64,000 nucleotides of DNA from Planctomycetota bacterium (GCA_026184295.1 JAHCJK010000002.1:10946-74945), one strand, 5' to 3'. Positions 27,179 through 54,565 are shown, counted from the first letter of the stretch. Numbers and translations are program-made. Notes: generated by a model from the letters alone, not told the origin.

Positions 27179-27204
27179 ACGCCGAGGCGTGCCCTGCGCC
27201 CTCC

Positions 27205-27229
27205 CCCCTCTCCCTCGAAGGGAGAGGGG
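27205..27229 (+). terminator. GC-rich stem-loop downstream of 26309..27178 (putative terminator)
   Basis: CCCCTCTCCC / GGGAGAGGGG 10-bp stem; weak U-tract. Confidence 0.35.
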
Positions 27230-27522
27230 TTGGGGTGTATAGCAACGTCGTAAAGTTCTAGGAAAGGCGTCGTGACCGGGGCGGGAGAAAACCACCCCCT
27301 GTTTCATTTTGGGGCGGTAGGGCGTCGTAAATCGAGCTTATTGGCCTTGAAATCCCCGGAAATTCCAATCGGTATGCCAGCCAACCCATCCGGACGGCCC
27401 AAAGCGGAGCTTGCGGAGGGCTAGGGTCTTACGACCACACGGCCTAGGCCGACGTTCCCTCCTACAAGCCACGGTACACCTAACAACCTCCGTTTTGTTC
27501 AGCAAGGGAGCAAATCCTAAGA

Positions 27523-27983
27523 TCATTTAGGGGGTTTTGGCTTGAGCGTCCGGGCCAGGATGCGGGCGACGTCACGGGCTACGTGGCCGACTTGTTCGTC
27601 GAAGCTGGCGCGGCTGACGATCCGGGCGCAGCTTCGCGAGAGCATGAGGTTGACGCCCTGTTCCTGGCTGGGGCGGTAGTCGGTCCGGATGCCGATGATC
27701 GGCCGGCCCTTGGCGGCGGCGTAGCCGACTTCCCAGGCGGTCCCGCTGTCGCTGTCCGGGCCGTCCAGGATGGCCACGACGGCGTGGCAATCGTCCAGGC
27801 CCTTTACGCAGAGCTTGTAGACTTCCCCGAAGTGCCGGCGGTCGTTGTAGCGGGCGTGGGGCTTGAAGTCCTGCGGAAGGAGGACCTTCGCGCCCGGGAG
27901 CGAGGCCTCCAGTTGCGTGGCGAGTTCGCGGTTCCATGTGCGTTCGGCCTGAGTAAAGAGCGGGCCGGCCAGATAAATAATCA
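27523..27983 (-). CDS. nucleoside 2-deoxyribosyltransferase / Rcl (dNMP N-glycosidase)-like protein
   Basis: MIIYLAGPLF N-terminus and DSGTAWEVGYAAAKGRPIIG (catalytic Glu motif of the NDT family). Start coordinate +/-1 nt. Confidence 0.7.
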
Positions 27984-28071
27984 TGGTTCCTGCCCTCTTG
28001 GCTCGGCCCGCCGCTTGGCTCCGACAAAACGCCGCGCCGCGCGCGCCTGATACCCCGGCCGAACCCAAGAT

Positions 28072-28647
28072 TTAAGGCGTTGGCGGGCGCTTGCTTTGCG
28101 AAGCTTCATCGGGTTCGGCATGGGAACCAAGGTAGCCCGCCGGCAAGGAACTTTCAACGGCGAGAGGGAAAACCGTCCATTCCGGGCGCATGACTTTGAA
28201 AAGAAGGATCGCTTCGGCGCGGGCCTCGGCCGCTCGCTCCGCTTCGATCTCAAGGGCAAGCTGAATCACACGCCGGCCGGGGATGCGCGTGTTCCTAATG
28301 ACCAGGTAAAAACTGTCGAATTGTTCGCGAGCCAGGCAGTCCGGCGGCGGTTCGTAGAACTTGAAAAAACGATGCCCTTCGCCTAGGGGCTTAAGCCACT
28401 TCTCGGGATCGAGGGGCTTAGCCTTGTCGCCTAGCGGTATCACATGGGTGGTTTCGACCGGAACACACGTGTCCAAAAAATCGGCGCTCGTACGCCGGAA
28501 ACGCCGACTCACTTCGGCCTTAAATTCGTCCACAAAGTATAGGTTGGTCGGGTCGGGCGGGGCGAAGAAGAGCGCGAGCTTCAATACCGCGGCCAGAAGG
28601 CACGCGCCGATTCCCAAGAGCGCCAAGCGATCCATTAGCCTACCCAT
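28072..28647 (-). CDS. hypothetical membrane-anchored protein (191 aa)
   Basis: N-terminal TM helix LALLGIGACLLAAVLKLALFF then soluble domain. Arg/Pro-rich upstream extension of ORF 28072..29064 rejected. Confidence 0.5.
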   Translation of the reverse strand: MGRLMDRLALLGIGACLLAAVLKLALFFAPPDPTNLYFVDEFKAEVSRRFRRTSADFLDTCVPVETTHVIPLGDKAKPLDPEKWLKPLGEGHRFFKFYEPPPDCLAREQFDSFYLVIRNTRIPGRRVIQLALEIEAERAAEARAEAILLFKVMRPEWTVFPLAVESSLPAGYLGSHAEPDEASQSKRPPTP

Positions 28648-28676
28648 AGCCTGACTTCCTTTCCTCCCCCTGCGAT

Positions 28677-29165
28677 CTAACGCCCGAAGAACCCCTCGTA
28701 GCTGGCCAGCGCTTCTTCCTGGGGCGCGCGGCGGGGACTGCCGGCGAGGATGCCGTCGAGGGCGCGCGCCAGGGCGGCGAGGCCGGCGGGTTGGTAGCGC
28801 GTATGATACGCGCGGCCGGGGCTTTCGCCCGGGTTCAAAAGAACGGGTTCCTGTTCGCAGATCGGGCCGGTGTCGAGGCCTTCGTCCGCCCAAAACCAGG
28901 TGACGCCCGAGACCCGTTCGCCGGCGTGGACGGTCCATCGGATCGCGTCCGGGCCTCGGCGGTACGGTAGGATCGACGGATGGAAGACGAGGACGCCTAG
29001 GCGTGGAGCGCGGAGTTCTTCCGGGCCGAGCTTGCGGGTCAACCGCGGCGCCAACGCGACCCACGCGCCGACGAGCGTCTCGCTGGGAAGGAAGCCCTTC
29101 GATTCTGCCAGGGCCGCGCAGCGCTTACCGTAATCGCCGGCGCCGTCGAACAGGTAGTATCTCAT
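28677..29165 (-). CDS. formyltransferase catalytic-domain-like protein (Fmt/PurN N-domain, truncated, catalytic Asn replaced)
   Basis: PRLGVLVFHPSILPYRRG aligns with PRLGCINVHGSLLPRWRG of Fmt (Asn replaced by Val, His kept). GVTWFWADEGLDTGPI matches GVTIMQMDVGLDTGDM (Asp kept). Only 162 aa. ATGA overlap with upstream gene. Confidence 0.7.
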   Translation of the reverse strand: MRYYLFDGAGDYGKRCAALAESKGFLPSETLVGAWVALAPRLTRKLGPEELRAPRLGVLVFHPSILPYRRGPDAIRWTVHAGERVSGVTWFWADEGLDTGPICEQEPVLLNPGESPGRAYHTRYQPAGLAALARALDGILAGSPRRAPQEEALASYEGFFGR

Positions 29166-30301
29166 GCGTTGGGCTCTCCGTAATACCTGAAACCCTGTAC
29201 GGCGCGGAAATGGCCTCCGTAGCCGGCATTCCCTAGCTCCGGATTTTTGAAGCAACCGCGGGCCGCCGCGGCCTGGAGCGTCCGGATGCAGCGCGCTTTG
29301 TCGTCGCCGTGAAGGCTGGCGGAAACCTGCGTCCAACGGGGATCTCGCCGAAGCGCCGCGGCTAGGCCCGGGTGGCTGGTGTGGAAGAGCGTGAGGAGCG
29401 GGAGCGCGTAGCGATTGAGGCCCTGGCGCCAGCGTTCGCAGAGCGCGTTGAGGAAGCGCAGGCCGACGCCGGCGCCCTGCCATTCGGGCATAACGACGAG
29501 GCGGCAGGCGCGGGCTTCCGAAAGGCCCGGGCGCGTGGAGAAGGCGACGTGCGCGACGGGTTCGCCGTCTACCGTGCCTACGTAGCAGGTCGCGGCGATC
29601 ATCTTGGGAAGTGCTAGATAGTGATGCGGTGCAAAAAGTTTCCAGTAACGCCAATCCGTCTCCCAAAGTTCGAGGTCGAAGCGCGGGCGTCGCCAAAGAC
29701 CCCTCCCGGCGTACTTCCCCGTCGCCGTGTCGAAAACCCAATCGGGTTCGAGCCAATCGAGGATGTCGTAATGGCAGGAGAGCAGGACGCATTGGCCGGG
29801 CGTCCGGCGCCAGGCCTTCTGGAAGGCAAGGGCGCCGACCTTCGCGATCTGCCGGTCCACGACGCTCGTGAATTCGTCCACGACGACGCGGCGCGGGGCC
29901 TGCAGGACGATGCGGGCGAGATCGGCGCGGAAGCGTTCGCCGTTCGAAAGCACGGCGTACGGCCGGAGCCAGGCGGGCACGCTTCCGAGGCCTACGGCCG
30001 AGAGCGCGGCCGTAACGGCGTCGAAGTCGCCGCCGGGCGCGAGGGCGTCGATGATCGGTTCCGCGGCCGGCCAGCCCTGGGGTTTGTAGAGCGCGCCCGG
30101 TCCCCAAAGCGCGCGGCCGATGGACGTCTTCCCCGATCCGGACGGGCCGACGACGAGGCCGAGCTTCCAGGCGCCGTCTTCGACGGGGAGTTCGGCGTCG
30201 AGGTCGAAGTTGCAGCCGGATTCGACGTTGAAGAGGCTTTTGACGCGCGCGGCGCGGTAGCTTTGGAAGTCGCTGCAGCGGTGGCGAATTCGGATGTTCA
30301 T
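29162..30301 (-). CDS. ABC-type ATPase domain fused to GNAT N-acetyltransferase domain (soluble)
   Basis: Walker A GPSGSGKTS, ABC signature LSNGERFRADLARIV, Walker B/D-loop RRVVVDEFTSVVD, H-loop LLSCHYD. C-terminal GNAT motif A RLVVMPEWQGAGVGLRFLNAL. No TM domain. Real start ATG 30301 (ORF track 30307 is GTG). Confidence 0.7.
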   Translation of the reverse strand: MNIRIRHRCSDFQSYRAARVKSLFNVESGCNFDLDAELPVEDGAWKLGLVVGPSGSGKTSIGRALWGPGALYKPQGWPAAEPIIDALAPGGDFDAVTAALSAVGLGSVPAWLRPYAVLSNGERFRADLARIVLQAPRRVVVDEFTSVVDRQIAKVGALAFQKAWRRTPGQCVLLSCHYDILDWLEPDWVFDTATGKYAGRGLWRRPRFDLELWETDWRYWKLFAPHHYLALPKMIAATCYVGTVDGEPVAHVAFSTRPGLSEARACRLVVMPEWQGAGVGLRFLNALCERWRQGLNRYALPLLTLFHTSHPGLAAALRRDPRWTQVSASLHGDDKARCIRTLQAAAARGCFKNPELGNAGYGGHFRAVQGFRYYGEPNA

Positions 30302-30495
30302 ACGCACACCACCTTGCAGCGGAGGCCGCTGCGCGTGAGGCGCGTGTAGGTTCGTTCCTGGGTTCGTTCGTCGTCGCAGACGACGATCACGGCGTACTGC
30401 CGGCGGTACTTGAACGTGACCGCGGCGCGGGCTTTGGGGGCGTGCAGTTTTCGCTTCGGGGCCGGCGCCGGTGCGCCGATACCTGCCTTAGGCAT
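30298..30495 (-). CDS. small basic protein (65 aa), translationally coupled to ABC-GNAT gene
   Basis: ATG with GGAGG immediately upstream (close spacing). TGA overlaps ATG of next gene (ATGA). Basic N-terminus, C-terminal Cys-containing segment. Confidence 0.45.
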   Translation of the reverse strand: MPKAGIGAPAPAPKRKLHAPKARAAVTFKYRRQYAVIVVCDDERTQERTYTRLTRSGLRCKVVCV

Positions 30496-30510
30496 TTCCT
30501 CCAGCCGATC

Positions 30511-30572
30511 TGTGTTCCCTTGAGCGCTTCCGGAAGGTCCGGCGGACGCAAGCCGCCTATTGTGTTCCCTTG
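30511..30572 (-). promoter_or_regulatory. direct repeats TGTGTTCCCTTG x2 (50-nt spacing) in promoter region of the cargo operon
   Basis: CTGTGTTCCCTTGAGCG at 30510-30526 and TTGTGTTCCCTTGGGCG at 30560-30576, 15-65 nt upstream of the small-protein ATG. Confidence 0.4.
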
Positions 30573-30616
30573 GGCGGGCCGTGTTAGCGCACGGTTCCGC
30601 CGGGCTGTCTCCGGGA

Positions 30617-30624
30617 ATTTAACG
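30617..30624 (-). promoter_or_regulatory. ATTTAACG motif copy (CCGGGAATTTAACGCG), upstream of cargo operon
   Basis: One of four same-orientation copies of CCnG(G/T)GA(A)TTTAACG in phage region. Confidence 0.45.
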
Positions 30625-30630
30625 CGCGGG

Positions 30631-48583: not shown

Positions 48584-49612
48584 TTAATTGCCGGAGTAGT
48601 TGTGGATGCTCTCGACGAGCGGCAGTTCCTTGTGGTTCTCGTACCCCACGGACCAGTTGGCCGAGGACTTCAGGGCCGTCAGCGAGGGGTTCGCGCCGCC
48701 GGCGCCCGAGTTCCAGCCCATGTGGTCGGACTCGATGACGAAGTCGTAGTCCGCGCGCCATTGCGTGGTCTTGGTCTCGCGTTCGATGCGGCGGTCGGTC
48801 TCGATCTGCACGGGGCGGATGAAGCCCCCGCGCATGACGCCCGGACCGGCCAGAAGGGTGATGTACTTGTCGTACCCGGCGTCGGCGACGGTCAGGTCGG
48901 CGTTGTCCACGAAGGCGCGTTCCATGCCGTACACGTTGCGGCCGTCGTCGCCCTGGAGGTGCAGGCCCGCGACCATGTCGATGGCGCGGCCGTTCGCGTC
49001 GGTGCTGAGGTCCTTCTTCACCTCGGCGCGGGCGAGCAGCCAGCGCAGCACGCCGACGCGGTCGCCCATGAGGAAGCGGGCGCGGTCCAGCACGTTCGGG
49101 TCGAAGTTGGTGCGGGTCGAAGCGTTCCAGACGGTGTCCGTGTGCGCGCCGGCCGTCATCGCTTCCACCATGCCGATCAACGCCGCGATGAAGATGTTGC
49201 TCATGTCGTCGGCGACGATCTCGCCGGCCTGCCGGCCGAGTTCCGCGCTGATCTGCGCGGGCGAGAGGCCCATGAGGAAGATGTCGTCGGTGAACTCGAC
49301 GAGCGGAGTGCGGCGGTTCAGGATCACGCCCTTGTTGTTCCCGCCTTCCACCTTCACGGCCGTCAGCGCGCTGTTGCTCGTGATGTCGCGCCGTTCCGCG
49401 GTAACCGCGCGCTTGAAGTACGGGTTCTCCGTGTACTGCCCGCCCTTGCCGGCGTAGGCCGGCTGGTTCTGCAGGAAGATCGGGCGCTCGGGACCGCCGA
49501 CCCAGGTCTTGAGCAGTTCGTAGGAGCGCGTCACGAACGCCTTTTGCATGTGGGCGTTCATGATCTGCGGCACGGGCGTGAAGTCCGAAGGGAGCGAAGT
49601 TCCGGTTGCCAT
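48584..49612 (-). CDS. phage major capsid (coat) protein
   Basis: 342 aa. Position directly after scaffold gene in terS-terL-portal-scaffold-coat order. Confidence 0.65.
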   Translation of the reverse strand: MATGTSLPSDFTPVPQIMNAHMQKAFVTRSYELLKTWVGGPERPIFLQNQPAYAGKGGQYTENPYFKRAVTAERRDITSNSALTAVKVEGGNNKGVILNRRTPLVEFTDDIFLMGLSPAQISAELGRQAGEIVADDMSNIFIAALIGMVEAMTAGAHTDTVWNASTRTNFDPNVLDRARFLMGDRVGVLRWLLARAEVKKDLSTDANGRAIDMVAGLHLQGDDGRNVYGMERAFVDNADLTVADAGYDKYITLLAGPGVMRGGFIRPVQIETDRRIERETKTTQWRADYDFVIESDHMGWNSGAGGANPSLTALKSSANWSVGYENHKELPLVESIHNYSGN

Positions 49613-50573: not shown

Positions 50574-52181
50574 TCAGTCCTCGCGCTCGGCGGGTTTTTC
50601 GGCCGGACCTTTTTTCCTGCCTTGGTCGGGAGCCGGTGGCGGTTCGGGCGGCTTGAGGGCGTTGCGCAGCGCGGCCTCCGGCCGCGGGTCCTTGTCGCGA
50701 AGCGCTTCGATCTCCTTCTTGATCTCGTCGAACGATTGCTCGTCGAGGTTCGGGAGCAGGCCTTGCACGCCCTTAAGCAGCAGTTGAATCGCGGCGCCGT
50801 TGACGCCGAGCGCGAGGAAGAAATCGACGGCCTCGGACAGGGAGGCGAATTCTTCCGCGGGGCTCGCAATGTCGAAGCTGTCCGGGAAGGTAATGGAGAT
50901 CGCCTTGGCGTCCGTTTGGCCTTCCGCGCGGCCGATGACTTCGAGCAACCACTGAAAGCCGGCCTGCAGGCAGATGCTGAGGAGAAAGAGAATCCGTTCT
51001 TCCGTGGTCTTGAACGTCCAGGCCTTCGAGACGCCCGACTGTTCGACCGCGACCGGAAGCGCCGCCGCCCCGTTCTTCCCGCCCGCGTCCTTCGCCTTGG
51101 ACACGAGCATCTGATGGATCGTCATGAGGTGCTGGATCGGCTGCGCGTCGGTATGCACGAATTCGAGGGCTTCGCCTTCGTTTCCCGTCAGCGCGTTCTT
51201 GTTCTTAAGCGGAATGAACCGGGAAGTTCCCAGTTCGAGTTCTTCGATCTCATCTTCGGTTCGATCTGTTTTGAGCGTGAGGATCGGGCAGAGCATGTAG
51301 GCCTGCCAAAGCAGTTCGCTCAATACCCACATGGCCGCAACGTCGGCCTGCGCGGCGCCCGCGAGGATCGGACGGCCGATCTTGTCCTTCTTCACCGGGA
51401 AGGGATGGAAAAAGCGGAAGGGAACGATGCCCGCGTTCGCCGCATCGGTAAAGCCGTGCTTGACGGGCGGGAAGGTTTCGATGCTGTATTTGCCGTCCTG
51501 AGTCGGCTGTTCAAGCTCCGTGATCTTGAACAGGGATATGTTCTCCCGGTCCACGATCCGGACGGTGTGGACCTTGACCGGTTTCGCGTTCCAGGTACCG
51601 GCCTCCAGGGAGACTTCGTGGAGCTTCACGTACACCAGGCCTTCGGCGTTCGAGGAGAAGTTGAGAATCTGCTCCGCCGAGTAGATCGCCATGTAGACGC
51701 GGCCGAGATCGCGGCTTTTCTTCTCGGCCATGGAAATCTCTTTACCCTGGAGTTCCTTGGGGACCGGGCGGCGGTCCAGAAGGATGCCGTGAAAGCCGTT
51801 GCACTGATCCAGCTCCGAGGACTTGGCGACGACGTCGAGCAGGGTCATGCCGGAAAGGGTCGCCTGCGTTTCAAGGTACTTCATCGAATCGGGCAGGGTG
51901 ATCGCGGGCGGAGTACGGCAAAGCGCGCCCTGGCGCGACTGGAGAATCCCGGGGGTCTCGGCGAAGACCGGCGTAAGACGCTTGCGCTTATCGTACTCTT
52001 TCTCGTGTTCGTTGAGGTGCTGCGGAAGGTACGTCTCCGTCTTCATGGCCGCGGGGCCTTCGAGCACGTCCTCGACGATCATCCATTGCTTCTGAAGCTC
52101 GTCGAGGTCGGAGCGTTTGGACAATAGCGCAGCCGCCAATTCGTCGGTCTTGGGAACGGCAGCCGGGGTTTGGATCGCCAC
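50574..52181 (-). CDS. phage portal protein
   Basis: 535 aa, directly downstream of terminase large subunit. Confidence 0.65.
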   Translation of the reverse strand: MAIQTPAAVPKTDELAAALLSKRSDLDELQKQWMIVEDVLEGPAAMKTETYLPQHLNEHEKEYDKRKRLTPVFAETPGILQSRQGALCRTPPAITLPDSMKYLETQATLSGMTLLDVVAKSSELDQCNGFHGILLDRRPVPKELQGKEISMAEKKSRDLGRVYMAIYSAEQILNFSSNAEGLVYVKLHEVSLEAGTWNAKPVKVHTVRIVDRENISLFKITELEQPTQDGKYSIETFPPVKHGFTDAANAGIVPFRFFHPFPVKKDKIGRPILAGAAQADVAAMWVLSELLWQAYMLCPILTLKTDRTEDEIEELELGTSRFIPLKNKNALTGNEGEALEFVHTDAQPIQHLMTIHQMLVSKAKDAGGKNGAAALPVAVEQSGVSKAWTFKTTEERILFLLSICLQAGFQWLLEVIGRAEGQTDAKAISITFPDSFDIASPAEEFASLSEAVDFFLALGVNGAAIQLLLKGVQGLLPNLDEQSFDEIKKEIEALRDKDPRPEAALRNALKPPEPPPAPDQGRKKGPAEKPAERED

Positions 52182-52194
52182 TGCTCAACTCCTT

Positions 52195-53700
52195 TTACGC
52201 GCGGGCAAGTTTGCGTCGCAGTTTTCCCGCCCGCCGCCAGTAGCCGTCCGCGGCCTGGCGCGTGCCTTCCAGACAAATGCGGACGCCCTTGCGAACGCGC
52301 GGGTTCTGGAGGCCGGGGAGCGCCACCGCTTCCTTGCCCTTCGCCGTTCCGGCAACCAGCGCGCGAACCAGGTCGATGCCCTGTGCGATCTCGCCTTTGG
52401 TTCCGCCCCTGATTTGACGATGGGCGACGGTGGGCACGTTCATCTGGCCGAGCAGGACAATCGAATCCGGGCGCGAGCGGTCCGCGACCGTGCGCTTGAT
52501 TGTCTCGCCGGCGCTGCGCTCGTAGATGCGGCGCGCGTGGTCCGGGACGCTCAGGCCTTTGCGCGCCGAATCGAGCACGTACATTTCGCGGTAGATGTGG
52601 ATGCGCCCGCGCAGGCCGAAGGTCACGACGGCGTACCGGATCGCGTCCATCGCGTGGTTGTTTTCGTCGGCCGGCTGCCCGTCCGGGCCGTTCGTGTACG
52701 CGAGGAATTCGTTGATCGTCTCGACGCACGACGGATCGACCGTCAGGCCGGGCGCTTCGCCGGGGATCTGCGCGATCCACAGGCAGACGAAGGGATCGAC
52801 GCCGCCAAAGTCGATGGCGCGGTAGCGAACCCAATCGGGGTGTACCGGGATTCGACGGACGAACCGCGCGTCTTCCGTGAAGAGCGCGTAGATGCGGCCT
52901 TCGGCGGACTCGAACGCTTCCTCCGGCGTGCGAGGATATTCCCGCTTCATGTACAGCGGGTCTTCTTCGTGCGATTCCTTTTCCTGCTTGTACCAGGCCT
53001 CGTCGCGCAACGGGTGCGCGTCCCAGCCGTAGAAGACGGGCTTGTATTTTTTCTTGCCGTTCTTCGCGAGCTTCCAAAGCTGGCGAAAGTGCCCGTCCGG
53101 ACCGCCCGAGGTCGTGAGGATGACCAGCTGGCCGTTGCCGGTTTCGAGCGTCGGCTCCGCGGCGTTGAGAATCTTCTTCAGCCACGGCACGTAATCGGCC
53201 TCGTCGATGATGACCAGGTCGGAGGCCAGCGAACGGAGCGCGCGCTTGGTCGGGGCGAAGGAACGAATCCAGGAACCGTGCCTCTTGTAGTTGAATTCGA
53301 GACGCGTCTTGCTGTCGCGCGTCGGGGTGCGCTTCAACCAGGCGGGCAGGTGATCGAGGACGAAGCGGCATTTGTCGAGGAAGTCGGCGGCGAATTCCTT
53401 GTCCTGCGAAATGACCGTAACCGTGTACATGCGGAAGTAGAGCACGCGCCAGACCGCGTAGGCCGCCAGCAGCCAGGTGAAGCCGAGCCGCCGGGCTTTC
53501 AGCAGGAGCAGCCATTCTCCTTTCAAGAGGCCCTGGCTGAATTCCTTCTGGCACGGATAGAGACCGAATGCGATCGGCTTGTGCGTCGCCTTGTCTTCGA
53601 TGAAGCAGAGTTTCGCGCACCAATAAAGGAAACCCGCGAAGCCGGCGACGATGCGCGCGACTTCGTCCTTGATCGATTTCTTGGAGCGCGTCCGGTTCAT
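52195..53700 (-). CDS. phage terminase large subunit
   Basis: 501 aa after trimming ORF 52195..54315 to MNRTRSKK. ATPase region LLLKARRLGFTW; C-terminal nuclease-like region. ATGA overlap with terS. Confidence 0.75.
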   Translation of the reverse strand: MNRTRSKKSIKDEVARIVAGFAGFLYWCAKLCFIEDKATHKPIAFGLYPCQKEFSQGLLKGEWLLLLKARRLGFTWLLAAYAVWRVLYFRMYTVTVISQDKEFAADFLDKCRFVLDHLPAWLKRTPTRDSKTRLEFNYKRHGSWIRSFAPTKRALRSLASDLVIIDEADYVPWLKKILNAAEPTLETGNGQLVILTTSGGPDGHFRQLWKLAKNGKKKYKPVFYGWDAHPLRDEAWYKQEKESHEEDPLYMKREYPRTPEEAFESAEGRIYALFTEDARFVRRIPVHPDWVRYRAIDFGGVDPFVCLWIAQIPGEAPGLTVDPSCVETINEFLAYTNGPDGQPADENNHAMDAIRYAVVTFGLRGRIHIYREMYVLDSARKGLSVPDHARRIYERSAGETIKRTVADRSRPDSIVLLGQMNVPTVAHRQIRGGTKGEIAQGIDLVRALVAGTAKGKEAVALPGLQNPRVRKGVRICLEGTRQAADGYWRRAGKLRRKLARA

Positions 53701-54158
53701 CAGAGGTCTTCCAGCGTGGGACCGTCCAGCGGCGCGGCCTTTCGCGACGCGGCCGGCTCCGGCCGCGGCTTCTGGCGGATGCGTTCGATTTCGCGAAGGA
53801 GGCGCGTGTAGAGTTCGACGAGCGTGCTGTCCTTCAGGTTCTGCAAGCGCGGCAATACTTGTTCCTGAACCTTCTTCAGAATGTCGAGGTCGCGCCCGCG
53901 GCTGGACGTGAGTTCCTCGCGCGCGCGGACTTCTTCCTTGGCCTGCGCGGCGTCTTCTTCGATGGCCTTCAGGCGCCGCGATTCGTCGTCGTAGATTTTC
54001 TCGAAGGCCTCCTCTTCCCGCATGCGGCGGATCGTCGCTTCGCCGATCTTGTCGAAGGTCTCGTACTCGGTGCGCAGCGCGCGGGCCGCGGCGCGAATGT
54101 TTCCGCCGGCGCGCGCGAGCTCGCGGGCGATGAGACGCTTTTGTCGGGGGGTGTACAT
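53700..54158 (-). CDS. phage terminase small subunit candidate (HTH)
   Basis: 152 aa, N-terminal HTH-like RQKRLIARELARAGGNIRAAARAL, coiled-coil; stop overlaps terL start. Confidence 0.55.
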   Translation of the reverse strand: MYTPRQKRLIARELARAGGNIRAAARALRTEYETFDKIGEATIRRMREEEAFEKIYDDESRRLKAIEEDAAQAKEEVRAREELTSSRGRDLDILKKVQEQVLPRLQNLKDSTLVELYTRLLREIERIRQKPRPEPAASRKAAPLDGPTLEDL

Positions 54159-54244
54159 GTTCGAAGAGGAGAAGCCGGGGAACGCGCGCGGGACGGGTCT
54201 GCTTTCGCTGCGCGCCCGCCGTTCCAGCCGGCCTCCCCAGCCTT

Positions 54245-54565
54245 TCAGGCGTGGAAGAGTTGTTCGACGTGCGAGGCCTTGGGATCGTCCTCCGGACGGT
54301 TGCCGTCCTGGTCAAGGTTCCCGTGATTTAACGCCCGCCGTTCTTTGCGAATCCAGTCGCGCATGCGCCAGTTCACGCGGCTGCGCCACCATGCGTAGGT
54401 ATGCCGGCCGGGGATTTCGAGGACGATCACGGCCGCGTGCTGCTTGAGATCGTCCTGCGTGGCCGCGTCGCCCGGCGCGATCCGGCGGGAAGCGATCCGG
54501 ATGTCGCGCGAAAGCTGGCGGCTCGCGCACATTTCCTGAGCGGAGAACCGCGGTTTCGTTTTCAT
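54245..54565 (-). CDS. phage hypothetical protein (106 aa)
   Basis: Start overlaps stop of 54562..54867. Confidence 0.4.
   Translation of the reverse strand: MKTKPRFSAQEMCASRQLSRDIRIASRRIAPGDAATQDDLKQHAAVIVLEIPGRHTYAWWRSRVNWRMRDWIRKERRALNHGNLDQDGNRPEDDPKASHVEQLFHA
54326..54334 (-). promoter_or_regulatory. GATTTAACG motif copy (CCCGTGATTTAACGCC)
   Basis: ~170 nt upstream of terS start. Confidence 0.45.

Follow-up and report, generated by a model that had tools for sequence, protein, structure and literature searches.

The window analysed here is a stretch of 64,000 nucleotides from a Planctomycetota bacterium (JAHCJK010000002.1:10946-74945). Five minus-strand genes of a prophage were located in it (Table 1), at the positions given in an earlier note on this DNA. 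They encode a small protein, a fusion of an ABC-type ATPase with a GNAT acyltransferase (ABC-GNAT), a formyltransferase-like protein (Fmt-like), a protein with a transmembrane helix (TM protein) and an NDT/Rcl-like enzyme (NDT protein). Terminase, portal and major capsid genes precede the cassette on the same strand. The first three genes are chained by ATGA stop/start overlaps, gtgtgcgtATGAacatc and aacgcATGAgatac; both were read directly in the sequence and agree with the earlier description. Profile searches upheld the assignment of ABC, GNAT, Formyl_trans_N and Nuc_deoxyrib_tr domains.

Table 1. Features of the cassette region, in positions of the window
Feature	Position	Strand	Remarks
Intergenic gap 5' of small gene	30496-30630	minus	135 nt
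16-nt direct repeat, two copies	30511-30526, 30561-30576		core CAAGGGAACACA on minus strand
Short GC hairpin	30541-30557		between the two repeat copies
Small gene	30298-30495	minus	ORF, 65 aa
ABC-GNAT gene	29162-30301	minus	ORF, 379 aa
ABC-type ATPase domain	29687-30301	minus	about aa 1-205
Walker A GPSGSGKT	30125-30148	minus	ABC domain
Signature LSNGE	29936-29950	minus	ABC domain
Walker B VVVDE	29873-29887	minus	ABC domain
H-loop His177	29771-29773	minus	ABC domain
GNAT acyltransferase domain	29162-29686	minus	about aa 206-379 and stop codon
CoA-pyrophosphate motif Q275-G-A-G278-V-G280	29462-29479	minus	canonical, GNAT domain
Fmt-like gene	28677-29165	minus	ORF, 162 aa
Fmt-like His62-Pro-Ser64	28974-28982	minus	invariant catalytic residues
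Fmt-like Asp98	28872-28874	minus	third member of catalytic triad
TM-protein gene	28072-28647	minus	ORF, 191 aa
NDT gene	27523-27984	minus	ORF, 153 aa

The functional unit is the trio of small protein, ABC-GNAT and Fmt-like protein, and the TM and NDT genes are separate adjoining accessories. Description of the locus as a five-gene cassette was correct as to the genes but overstated their linkage, as genes 1-3 alone recur together elsewhere. In the gap upstream of the trio the direct repeat gave 2 matches against 0.15 expected, and the gap region is about 81% identical to that of the sister phage L165. The exact repeat core was absent from all fetched loci. The gap is a possible regulatory region.

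In the TM protein a single hydrophobic helix lies at the N-terminus, at about aa 8-29 (Kyte-Doolittle 19-residue maximum 2.42 at residue 10), in keeping with the prior description of the protein as membrane-anchored, and its gene has a strong ribosome-binding site of its own. No match to the protein was found in Pfam, PHROGs, NCBIfam or PADLOC. The gene was found in the window only (0 of 292 loci, tblastn), and its counterpart position in L165 is occupied by an unrelated gene on the opposite strand; by these comparisons it is a local accessory outside the conserved module. The NDT protein proved a genuine member of the NDT/Rcl family, matching Nuc_deoxyrib_tr (PF05014, 83.9 bits, cut-off 28.8), PF15891 (61.3 bits), phrog_7995 and the PDB entries 7m5h (E = 1.9e-12) and 7o62, both at E of about 1e-12. 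Its motif DSGTAWEVG contains the catalytic Glu85 and follows the family pattern D-x-G-T-x-x-E-x-G. Among the fetched loci its gene was shared with L165 alone (80% nucleotide identity) and was missing from all 290 others, which places it outside the conserved unit; judged by sequence, it is a lineage-specific accessory of this phage group. The interval from the tail genes to the trio is mosaic relative to L165.

Domains and active sites of the trio

The small protein is basic (65 aa, pI 10.5), with a very basic, disordered-looking N-terminal tail and a conserved domain of roughly 35 aa, YAVIVVCDDERTQERTYTRLTRSGLRCKVVCV. It matched phrog_28816 (E = 4.5e-11). In other phages ABC-GNAT is preceded by ParB-like proteins, and the domain is a homologue of their C-terminal domain; its motif also terminates the ParB_N proteins of other loci. 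A search of the whole window with a purpose-built HMM gave no ParB_N domain (PF02195), leaving the C-terminal domain alone. From these alignments, the small protein is a ParB-like partner's C-terminal domain in detached form; in other phages the partner is full-length or fused to ABC-GNAT. The small protein is likely to serve the ABC-GNAT enzyme as an adaptor or a dimerisation subunit.

That a complete ABC nucleotide-binding domain and a C-terminal GNAT domain lie in one protein was confirmed by motifs and by Pfam (Acetyltransf_1, 26.7 bits, cut-off 20.7). The ABC domain has the Walker A, signature, Walker B with catalytic Glu, D-loop and H-loop of its superfamily. The GNAT domain has the fold and the Q/R-x-x-G-x-G/A CoA-pyrophosphate motif, with a conserved C-terminal motif, GYGGHFRAVQGF, beyond it. 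ABC-GNAT matched phrog_11143 (E = 1.9e-148), is basic (pI 9.3) and is soluble, with no hydrophobic helix in its hydropathy profile. Inteins interrupt the ABC motifs of some homologues. In phage records the protein has been misannotated as 'ABC transporter' since 2010. Membership of a complete ABC transporter was rejected: no conserved membrane permease was found, the genes conserved beside ABC-GNAT encode the small or ParB-like protein and the Fmt-like protein, and the nearby TM gene is confined to the window. The fold and all catalytic motifs of the ABC domain are shared with ABC transporter NBDs, ABC-F, ABCE1, PhnK/L and MCR component A2, from which ABC-GNAT differs in its single ABC domain fused to GNAT and in having no conserved membrane partner. 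The domain resembles generic transporter-type nucleotide-binding domains and not the DNA-clamping SMC, Rad50, MutS and UvrA types. The fold neighbours of the GNAT domain are mostly small-molecule N-acetyltransferases, together with protein N-acetyltransferases.

The Fmt-like protein matched Formyl_trans_N at 59.4 bits (cut-off 26.1) and has the domain, catalytic His and Asp, and SLLP loop of the formyltransferase fold (PF00551). Its model has a pLDDT of 96 and can be superposed on solved formyltransferase domains over 158 of its 162 residues, at 1.7-2.1 Å. The earlier note had called the protein degenerate, with most of the N-terminal Rossmann half lost. Neither statement held: the N-subdomain has a 39-aa internal deletion relative to the roughly 200-aa long form, and this deletion is usual in a conserved, populated short subfamily. 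The C-terminal OB domain is absent. The nearest solved relative is the FDH hydrolase domain (E = 1e-22, versus 2e-12 for Fmt). The Asn of Asn-x-His is truly missing, replaced by a hydrophobic residue, but this is a family trait and no mark of degeneration; the active FDH hydrolase domain also lacks it. Assignment as a methionyl-tRNA formyltransferase was rejected (TIGR00460, 48.7 bits, cut-off 201.5; no Formyl_trans_C match; tRNA-binding C-terminal domain absent), as was assignment as the GAR transformylase PurN (TIGR00639, 36.9 bits, cut-off 150.1; Asn of Asn-x-His replaced). The FDH (ALDH1L1) hydrolase and HypX N-domain type is defined by a His/Ser(or Asp)/Asp triad and by a thiol (4'-PP or CoA) as formyl acceptor; the Fmt-like protein differs from these two domains as a stand-alone 162-aa core with no OB subdomain, carrier, ALDH or hydratase domains. 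The model shows the Fmt-like protein as a formyltransferase catalytic domain that folds well and has kept the His/Ser/Asp triad. The protein probably acts as a 10-formyl-THF-dependent enzyme whose role is to provide or tailor an acyl group. Members of the short subfamily also turned up apart from ABC-GNAT; one example lay in a chromosomal cluster that looks biosynthetic.

Conservation of the trio

Homologues of ABC-GNAT formed more than 7,600 clusters at E ≤ 1e-10, with 65-78% identity across phyla, and 784 clusters (50% identity) at E ≤ 1e-30; the searches located 558 viral and 311 genome loci. Linkage was counted over 127 related loci with enough flanking DNA. Upstream of ABC-GNAT, the small-protein domain was free in 94 of these; in the other 33 it made up the end of a ParB-like protein. 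An Fmt-like gene lay downstream in 110. The architectures were small protein with Fmt-like (83), ParB with Fmt-like (27), small protein only (11) and ParB only (6). By tblastn, 150-158 of 164 loci had the small-protein domain upstream, and a ParB_N partner was present in 39 of 164; Pfam confirmed the ParB_N domain in such partners (E about 1e-10). Almost without exception the small gene overlaps ABC-GNAT by 4 nt. Three proteins (P0151, P0213 and P0232) are single-chain ParB-CTD-ABC-GNAT fusions.

Gene order and translational coupling of the trio are kept across hundreds of phage and prophage loci in many phyla, including Burkholderia phiE255 (gp28-30), Pseudomonas Komp_PAO1_1, Gordonia phages (genes 1-3) and Porphyromonas phages. 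This answers the question of co-occurrence raised earlier: the trio occurs together in other genomes and the TM and NDT genes do not, apart from the NDT gene of L165. Elsewhere the module lies just upstream of terminase, after the tail-fibre genes in Mu-like phages, or inside replication modules. In the Jace clade of actinophages, the Fmt-like gene after ABC-GNAT is replaced by genes for the aspartate decarboxylase PanD (PF02261, E = 2e-33) and a CoA_transf_3-like protein (34.1 bits, cut-off 23.3). PanD was present in 16 loci and the CoA_transf_3-like protein in 20, almost never beside Fmt. An ASCH domain protein was seen near the module in streptococcal phages. Literature searches gave no published function for the trio and no described system with such a combination, as the earlier note had stated.

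Proposed mechanism and probable target

The trio was interpreted, with a probability of roughly 0.4, as an ATP-gated, acyl-CoA-dependent acyl-transfer module with swappable donor-supply enzymes and phage DNA as the likeliest target. Two ABC domains would close on ATP to gate or clamp the substrate, the GNAT domain would move an acyl group from a CoA thioester to an amine of the target, and the ParB-derived domain would dimerise or tether the enzyme. The third gene would determine the acyl group used: here formyl from 10-formyl-tetrahydrofolate, most simply via formyl-CoA; in the Jace clade a beta-alanyl donor made with PanD and the CoA-transferase-like protein; and in systems with no third gene a host acyl-CoA. 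In an alternative order, the Fmt-like protein could formylate the product after the GNAT step. The donor-supply logic is suggested by the closeness of the Fmt-like protein to the FDH hydrolase domain and from the Jace-clade swap. The FDH hydrolase domain transfers formyl to 4'-phosphopantetheine, and HypX has been proposed from structures to formylate CoA, which is not a demonstrated reaction (PMC6802093, PMC8748788). Both this status of the HypX reaction and the occurrence of the short Fmt-like subfamily apart from ABC-GNAT count against the interpretation.

Judging from context, the target is probably phage DNA, marked late in infection so as to shield it from host nucleases. This is favoured by the ParB_N partners, by the activation of phage DNA-modifying dioxygenases by ParB-like proteins (PMC13229309), by the precedent of Mom, a GNAT that modifies dsDNA (PMC13219725), by the settings next to packaging genes, inside replication modules or, in Mu-like phages, at the place that mom has in Mu, and by the basic character of ABC-GNAT and the small protein. 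Against a DNA target count the transporter-type ABC domain, the small-molecule- or protein-like GNAT domain, the missing similarity to Mom and the absence of ParB_N from the window. Some roles of ParB-fold proteins have nothing to do with DNA. The literature contained no experiment on the module and no report of a modified base for any phage that carries it. The earlier alternative of nucleotide or DNA-base modification is closer to the favoured reading, but it relied on the NDT protein, which is outside the unit, and the partner is a ParB-like protein instead.

Mom of phage Mu is, like ABC-GNAT, a GNAT-fold enzyme of a temperate phage. Its gene follows the tail-fibre genes, as the trio does in BcepMu-like phages. 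Both GNAT genes have a small overlapping gene before them, which in Mu is com. No relationship between Mom and ABC-GNAT was detectable (hhalign probability 0.2%). Mom uses Gly-tRNA and not acyl-CoA and has no ATPase, whereas ABC-GNAT keeps the CoA motif and a fused ABC ATPase; com is a zinc-finger translational activator, unlike the ParB C-terminal domain of the small protein. The ParB-dependent thymine dioxygenases (5mYOX) also combine a phage modification enzyme with a ParB-like protein, an activator with an N-terminal NTP-binding domain, a C-terminal domain and no obvious DNA-binding domain (PMC13229309). In the present module the enzyme is ABC-GNAT, and of ParB only the C-terminal domain is left, in this window as in roughly three of every four close relatives.

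The most probable of the other explanations, though unlikely, is that the module acylates a protein gripped or unfolded by the ABC domain, either inactivating a host defence or housekeeping protein or modifying a phage virion protein. The GNAT AcrVA5 acetylates Cas12a. A protein target leaves unexplained why a ParB_N partner recurs, why the genes are placed in replication and packaging modules, and why identity stays at 65-78% between hosts of very different phyla, a conservation that favours a universal substrate over a host-specific protein. Somewhat less probable is production or modification of a small molecule (a nucleotide, polyamine, immune signalling nucleotide or cofactor), with the NDT protein joining nucleotide chemistry in this lineage. 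The GNAT fold neighbours fit this, as do the metabolic character of PanD, the CoA-transferase-like and the Fmt-like enzymes, the chromosomal cluster containing the short Fmt-like subfamily, and the adjoining NDT gene in two related phages. An ATP-gated ABC dimer with a ParB-derived partner, sometimes fused, would be unexpected for a simple acetyltransferase, and the NDT gene is missing from all other loci.

Action on RNA, as TmcA-like base acylation or as the toxin/immunity or abortive-infection module on initiator Met-tRNA that the earlier note had put forward, is more doubtful again; the analysis did not support the Met-tRNA module. TmcA and NAT10 are NTPase-GNAT fusions in which ATP hydrolysis is coupled to acyl-CoA-dependent acetylation of RNA cytidine, and they offer the closest analogy for a possible enzyme mechanism. 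Their ATPase is helicase-type and they are cellular, whereas ABC-GNAT is phage-borne with ParB-derived and Fmt-like partners; Pfam gave only ABC/AAA and generic GNAT families, with no match to the TmcA-type GNAT family, so membership was rejected. The top phmmer match of the ABC part, the ribosome-binding ABC-F protein EttA, points to RNA weakly (E = 3e-6), at a level of likeness no greater than for any ABC protein. Formyltransferase-fold enzymes include Fmt, and an ASCH domain protein lies nearby in streptococcal phages, but the Fmt-like protein has no tRNA-binding C-terminal domain and scores far under the Fmt equivalog cut-off. Its role as a catalytically dead decoy was discounted since the catalytic residues are intact. 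The toxins AtaT, TacT and ItaT share the GNAT fold and acetyl-CoA use with ABC-GNAT; they are single-domain proteins of roughly 170 aa. They are described as paired with a DNA-binding antitoxin (PMC6125619). ABC-GNAT is set apart from them by its 379-aa fusion with no antitoxin-like partner, and PADLOC gave no significant match for the cassette genes. Many unrelated phages keep the genes translationally coupled in late or packaging regions, at 65-78% identity from phylum to phylum, which is unlike a toxin-antitoxin or abortive-infection arrangement.

That all five genes are unrelated morons gathered at the prophage end is very improbable. The window-only TM gene, the lineage-specific NDT gene and the mosaic interval relative to L165 are as expected of morons, and that reading holds for the TM gene and, in large part, the NDT gene. 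It is ruled out for the trio, whose genes keep their order and 4-nt overlaps, occur together in most loci and are found naturally fused.

Conservation and surroundings of the three genes

The genes for a small protein, an ABC-ATPase-GNAT fusion (ABC-GNAT) and a formyltransferase-fold protein (Fmt-like) almost certainly form a functional unit. Linkage was assessed in 160 close loci, fetched from viral and genome collections. The small-protein motif was found upstream of ABC-GNAT in 150-158 of 164 loci, nearly all with the identical 4-nt overlap, and the Fmt-like gene followed in 118 of the 137 loci with sufficient downstream DNA. At loci without the Fmt-like gene, ABC-GNAT was followed by terminase genes, the prophage end or a ParB-plus-Dam pair. 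The trio comes directly after the tail-fibre genes in Burkholderia phiE255 (gp28-gp29-gp30) and Pseudomonas Komp_PAO1_1, and stands at the genome end in Porphyromonas phages. Genes 1-3 of Gordonia phages encode ParB-like, ABC-GNAT and Fmt-like proteins, and the terminase gene comes next.

The earlier note had proposed a cassette of five genes, the other two encoding a protein with an N-terminal transmembrane anchor (TM) and a nucleoside 2-deoxyribosyltransferase/Rcl-family protein (NDT). Its first three genes are conserved together. The five-gene unit was rejected, since in tblastn searches of 292 loci TM had no match and NDT matched only a sister phage (L165). DNA of the sister phage is ~81% identical to the window over the trio and 80% over the NDT gene, and an unrelated gene occupies the position of the TM gene.

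ABC-GNAT is covered over its full length by phrog_11143, a PHROG without assigned function (E 1.9e-148), and the small protein matches phrog_28816. ABC-GNAT was found by tblastn in 69 annotated phage records. More than 7,600 homologue clusters at 90% identity were present in the protein collection (E<=1e-10); the best 120 of these are 69-89% identical, and the named ones among them span several phyla. Searching representatives at 50% identity with a profile gave 784 clusters (E<=1e-30). Members keep ~70% identity across bacterial phyla, and a metagenome-assembled genome of Planctomycetota has a recorded protein identical to ABC-GNAT. Among the phages with the module are cultured, tractable ones that infect Burkholderia, Pseudomonas, Gordonia, Streptococcus and Porphyromonas.

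Features of the window and of loci used for comparison
Feature	Position	Strand	Remark
Large terminase	52195-54315	minus	prophage gene
Portal	50574-52181	minus	prophage gene
Major capsid protein	48584-49612	minus	prophage gene
Zinc-ribbon-like protein, 137 aa	30631-31044	minus	directly upstream of trio
Direct repeat, 16 nt	30561-30576		one of two copies
GC hairpin, short	30541-30557		between the repeats
Direct repeat, 16 nt	30511-30526		one of two copies
Small protein, 65 aa	30298-30495	minus	ORF
ABC-GNAT, 379 aa	29162-30301	minus	start within ATGA ending small-protein ORF
Fmt-like, 162 aa	28677-29165	minus	start within ATGA ending ABC-GNAT ORF
TM protein, 191 aa	28072-28647	minus	29-nt gap before it, with strong ribosome-binding site
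NDT, 153 aa	27523-27984	minus	ORF
Stretch matching sister phage	27236-27341		~100 nt
GC-rich inverted repeat	27190-27244		resembles hairpin
Rhodococcus phage Jace gp85-88 and its clade	L167:3420-6185 (Jace), L171-L194		ParB-like, ABC-GNAT, aspartate 1-decarboxylase, CoA-transferase-III-like
Second ABC-GNAT paralogue, Jace clade	L172:6158-7261		example
Streptococcus prophage 315.4	L004:4519-6523		ABC and GNAT encoded separately
Chromosomal cluster with short-form Fmt-like protein	L294:1995-7185		without ABC-GNAT
Gordonia Fmt-like gene	L003:1805-2452		mislabelled 'tRNA-methyltransferase'
Porphyromonas small protein	L170:3876-4004		labelled 'acr candidate'
ABC-GNAT in a phage record	L001:6001-7131		labelled as a transporter

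The prophage lies on the minus strand around the feature, where GC content is ~65%. Large genes without annotation, presumably for the tail, separate the capsid gene from the trio region. The small gene is preceded by a 135-nt gap in which a 16-nt direct repeat occurs twice, 50 nt apart (minus-strand core CAAGGGAACACA; 0.15 matches would be expected, 2 were seen), and which may hold a regulator binding site. The exact core was not found in any fetched locus, sister phage included, and no sigma-70 promoter was predicted ahead of the cassette. The 137-aa gene upstream of the trio encodes CxxC...CxxC zinc-ribbon-like motifs with a weak phrog_13558 match, and is not conserved: in the sister phage its place is taken by an SRAP (PF02586) gene on the opposite strand and a further ORF. 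Beyond the NDT gene, the stretch matching the sister phage is 78% identical, so phage DNA reaches at least that far; the inverted repeat is adjacent to it. No tRNA gene, sought as a prophage-end attachment site, was found in the window.

The Fmt-like protein and the ParB-derived partner

Fmt-like proteins occur in a long form of ~200 aa and a short form of ~160 aa, distinguished by a segment of 39 residues in the N-subdomain. The short-form subfamily comprises 145 clusters, most of them 160-185 aa long, with 48-86% identity to the protein of the window. His62-Pro-Ser64, Arg70-Gly71 and Asp98 are invariant, and Asp73 is invariant in one alignment (A2) and nearly so in another (A3). The populated short subfamily and the invariant His62-Pro-Ser64 and Asp98 contradict the description of this protein as degenerate. 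Identity with Fmt or PurN was rejected, as equivalog cut-offs were missed widely and the tRNA-binding C-terminal domain is missing. By sequence, no solved relative is closer than the 10-formyl-THF dehydrogenase (FDH) hydrolase domain (E 1e-22, where no Fmt does better than 2e-12), which has an identical 'YHPSLLPRHRG' and likewise, as in the Fmt-like protein, no PurN-type Asn. In the FDH domain a His/Ser/Asp triad passes formyl to the 4'-phosphopantetheine thiol, and CoA formylation by the related HypX domain has been proposed from structures (PMC6802093, PMC8748788).

A short-form protein 60% identical to that of the window was also seen in a chromosomal cluster without ABC-GNAT. Its neighbours encode aldehyde-dehydrogenase-like, cyclase, short-chain dehydrogenase, KAS III-like and hydrolase proteins and a MatE exporter, and the whole looks like a split FDH arrangement within a thioester-based biosynthetic cluster.

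The ~35 conserved residues of the small protein (YAVIVVCDDERTQERTYTRLTRSGLRCKVVCV) can be aligned to the C-termini of proteins encoded upstream of ABC-GNAT in siphophage-type loci, and those proteins carry Pfam ParB_N (E ~1e-10). The long ParB_N form was present upstream of ABC-GNAT in 39 of 164 loci; no ParB_N was found anywhere in the window. Judged by this alignment, the small protein is the C-terminal domain of ParB, detached from the rest. In three representative proteins (576-623 aa), an N-terminal ParB-like region, the small-protein domain and ABC-GNAT make up one chain. These natural fusions are Rosetta-stone evidence of a physical partnership between the small protein and the enzyme, and an interface between the conserved beta-alpha-beta domain of the former and ABC-GNAT would be expected from them. 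Two ABC-GNAT homologues (P0193, P0251) contain inteins (Hint plus LAGLIDADG homing endonuclease) inside the ABC domain, that of P0251 exactly at the LSNGE signature motif. Inteins usually occupy conserved positions of proteins needed by the element, and their placement in ABC motifs is a further hint of functional importance.

Variant modules in other phage clades

In the actinophage clade of Rhodococcus phage Jace, a ParB-like protein was encoded upstream of ABC-GNAT in at least 23 of 42 fetched loci. Downstream, 16 loci have aspartate 1-decarboxylase (PanD; PF02261, E 2e-33) and 20 have a short protein resembling CoA-transferase family III (PF02515, 34.1 bits, cut-off 23.3). The Fmt-like gene was absent from every locus with either gene. 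Eight loci of this clade carry a second ABC-GNAT paralogue ~1 kb downstream.

ABC and GNAT are encoded separately in Streptococcus prophage 315.4 and related Streptococcus, Lactococcus and Oenococcus phages, as judged by two tblastn pieces in all these records. A ParB_N protein, frequently annotated 'DNA modification methylase', precedes them, and an ASCH-domain protein follows in place of the Fmt-like gene. In relatives of Nonlabens phage P12024S from marine Bacteroidota (L213-L292), ABC-GNAT lies within the replication module, beside genes for a DnaB-like helicase, NinG, a PD-(D/E)XK DUF3799 protein and a DnaA_C-like HTH protein. The Fmt-like gene was detected in none of these loci, and a ParB-like partner was not detected in most (2 of 80 loci grouped with ParB-like proteins). 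A ~155-aa family without annotation was found downstream of ABC-GNAT in 18 of them.

Proposed activity and target

The GNAT domain retains the canonical CoA-binding Q-x-x-G-x-G motif, and the donor-type third genes (FDH/HypX-like; PanD with CoA-transferase-like) point to CoA-thioester chemistry. From these sequence features we propose that the module is an acyltransferase gated by ATP and dependent on CoA thioesters, which works with a ParB-derived partner and whose acyl-donor enzymes are interchangeable. Transfer from acyl-CoA, with accessory enzymes supplying the donor, is considered the probable case. On the most economical reading, the third position would encode the maker of the acyl donor: a formyl thioester in the window and, in the Jace clade, probably a beta-alanyl one, with host acyl-CoA sufficing where a third gene is missing. 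Alternatively, the third gene could act in tailoring after transfer. On a bolder and less likely reading, the trio would be a novel kind of system for N-acylating nucleic acids: an FDH/HypX-like enzyme would convert 10-formyl-THF to formyl-CoA, and the ATP-gated ABC-GNAT dimer, held by the ParB-derived domain, would transfer formyl to exocyclic amines of phage DNA bases; beta-alanyl or acetyl would be transferred in other clades. The resulting N-acyl bases, not known before in DNA, might be used against restriction, the acyl group being diversified by swapping the donor-supply gene.

DNA is suggested as the target by the ParB_N partner, the module position, the Mom precedent, high conservation across host phyla and the fact that both ABC-GNAT and the tail of the small protein are basic. 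ParB-like proteins activate phage DNA dioxygenases (PMC13229309) and in phages are often fused to DNA methyltransferases (PMC12704722); Mom is a GNAT modifying dsDNA (PMC13219725). In some phages the module immediately precedes terminase genes; in others it belongs to a replication module with DnaB-like, NinG and PD-(D/E)XK genes as neighbours or, in Mu-like phages, follows the tail-fibre genes, the place where Mu encodes com and mom. Against DNA stand an ABC fold closer to nucleotide-binding domains, transporter-type and other soluble ones, than to SMC, Rad50, MutS or UvrA, a GNAT domain resembling small-molecule and protein acetyltransferases, the lack of similarity to Mom, and the occurrence of the short Fmt-like subfamily outside the module as well. 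On balance we infer DNA modification by donor-supplied acyl transfer with a probability of about 0.4. That the chemistry is new altogether, a formyl or aminoacyl thioester-dependent N-acylation of DNA, is less likely but a real chance.

Each family seriously considered (ABC transporter, Mom, TmcA, GNAT toxins, Fmt, PurN) fails at least one defining feature. Mom homology was not supported by hhalign. An ABC transporter, as given in phage records and the 2010 phiE255 paper, was rejected in view of the missing permease partner. Toxin-antitoxin or abortive infection was likewise set aside as the main explanation, there being no PADLOC match, intact catalytic residues and a late-operon context. The earlier note had favoured a toxin/immunity module acting on initiator tRNA; this rested on a decoy Fmt-like protein, which the data contradict, the analogy with GNAT toxins differs in architecture and genomic context, and no defence-system profile matched. 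Its second idea, nucleotide or DNA-base modification, comes close to the explanation preferred here, except that NDT is not part of the conserved system. In working mode the module most resembles GNAT acyltransferases of nucleic acids that are coupled to an NTPase, and phage DNA modification assisted by ParB.

The gene family was remarked on as unexplained in phiE255 in 2010 and taken for an ABC transporter (PMC2920897); several phage records label ABC-GNAT 'ABC transporter' or 'siderophore transporter'. No functional study assigning a role to the module was found in the full-text literature, one relevant 2020 ABC-ATPase classification lying beyond its reach. Among phage accessory modules without assigned function it is one of the more widespread and more strongly conserved, and the comparative evidence turns it into a concrete, testable proposal. 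If the module acts on DNA, phage DNA modification would gain a chemically new class and a second GNAT route, unrelated to Mom, and formyl-CoA a possible biological use as acyl donor. Should it act on something else, it would still be an unexplored ATPase-coupled acylation machine of many phages.
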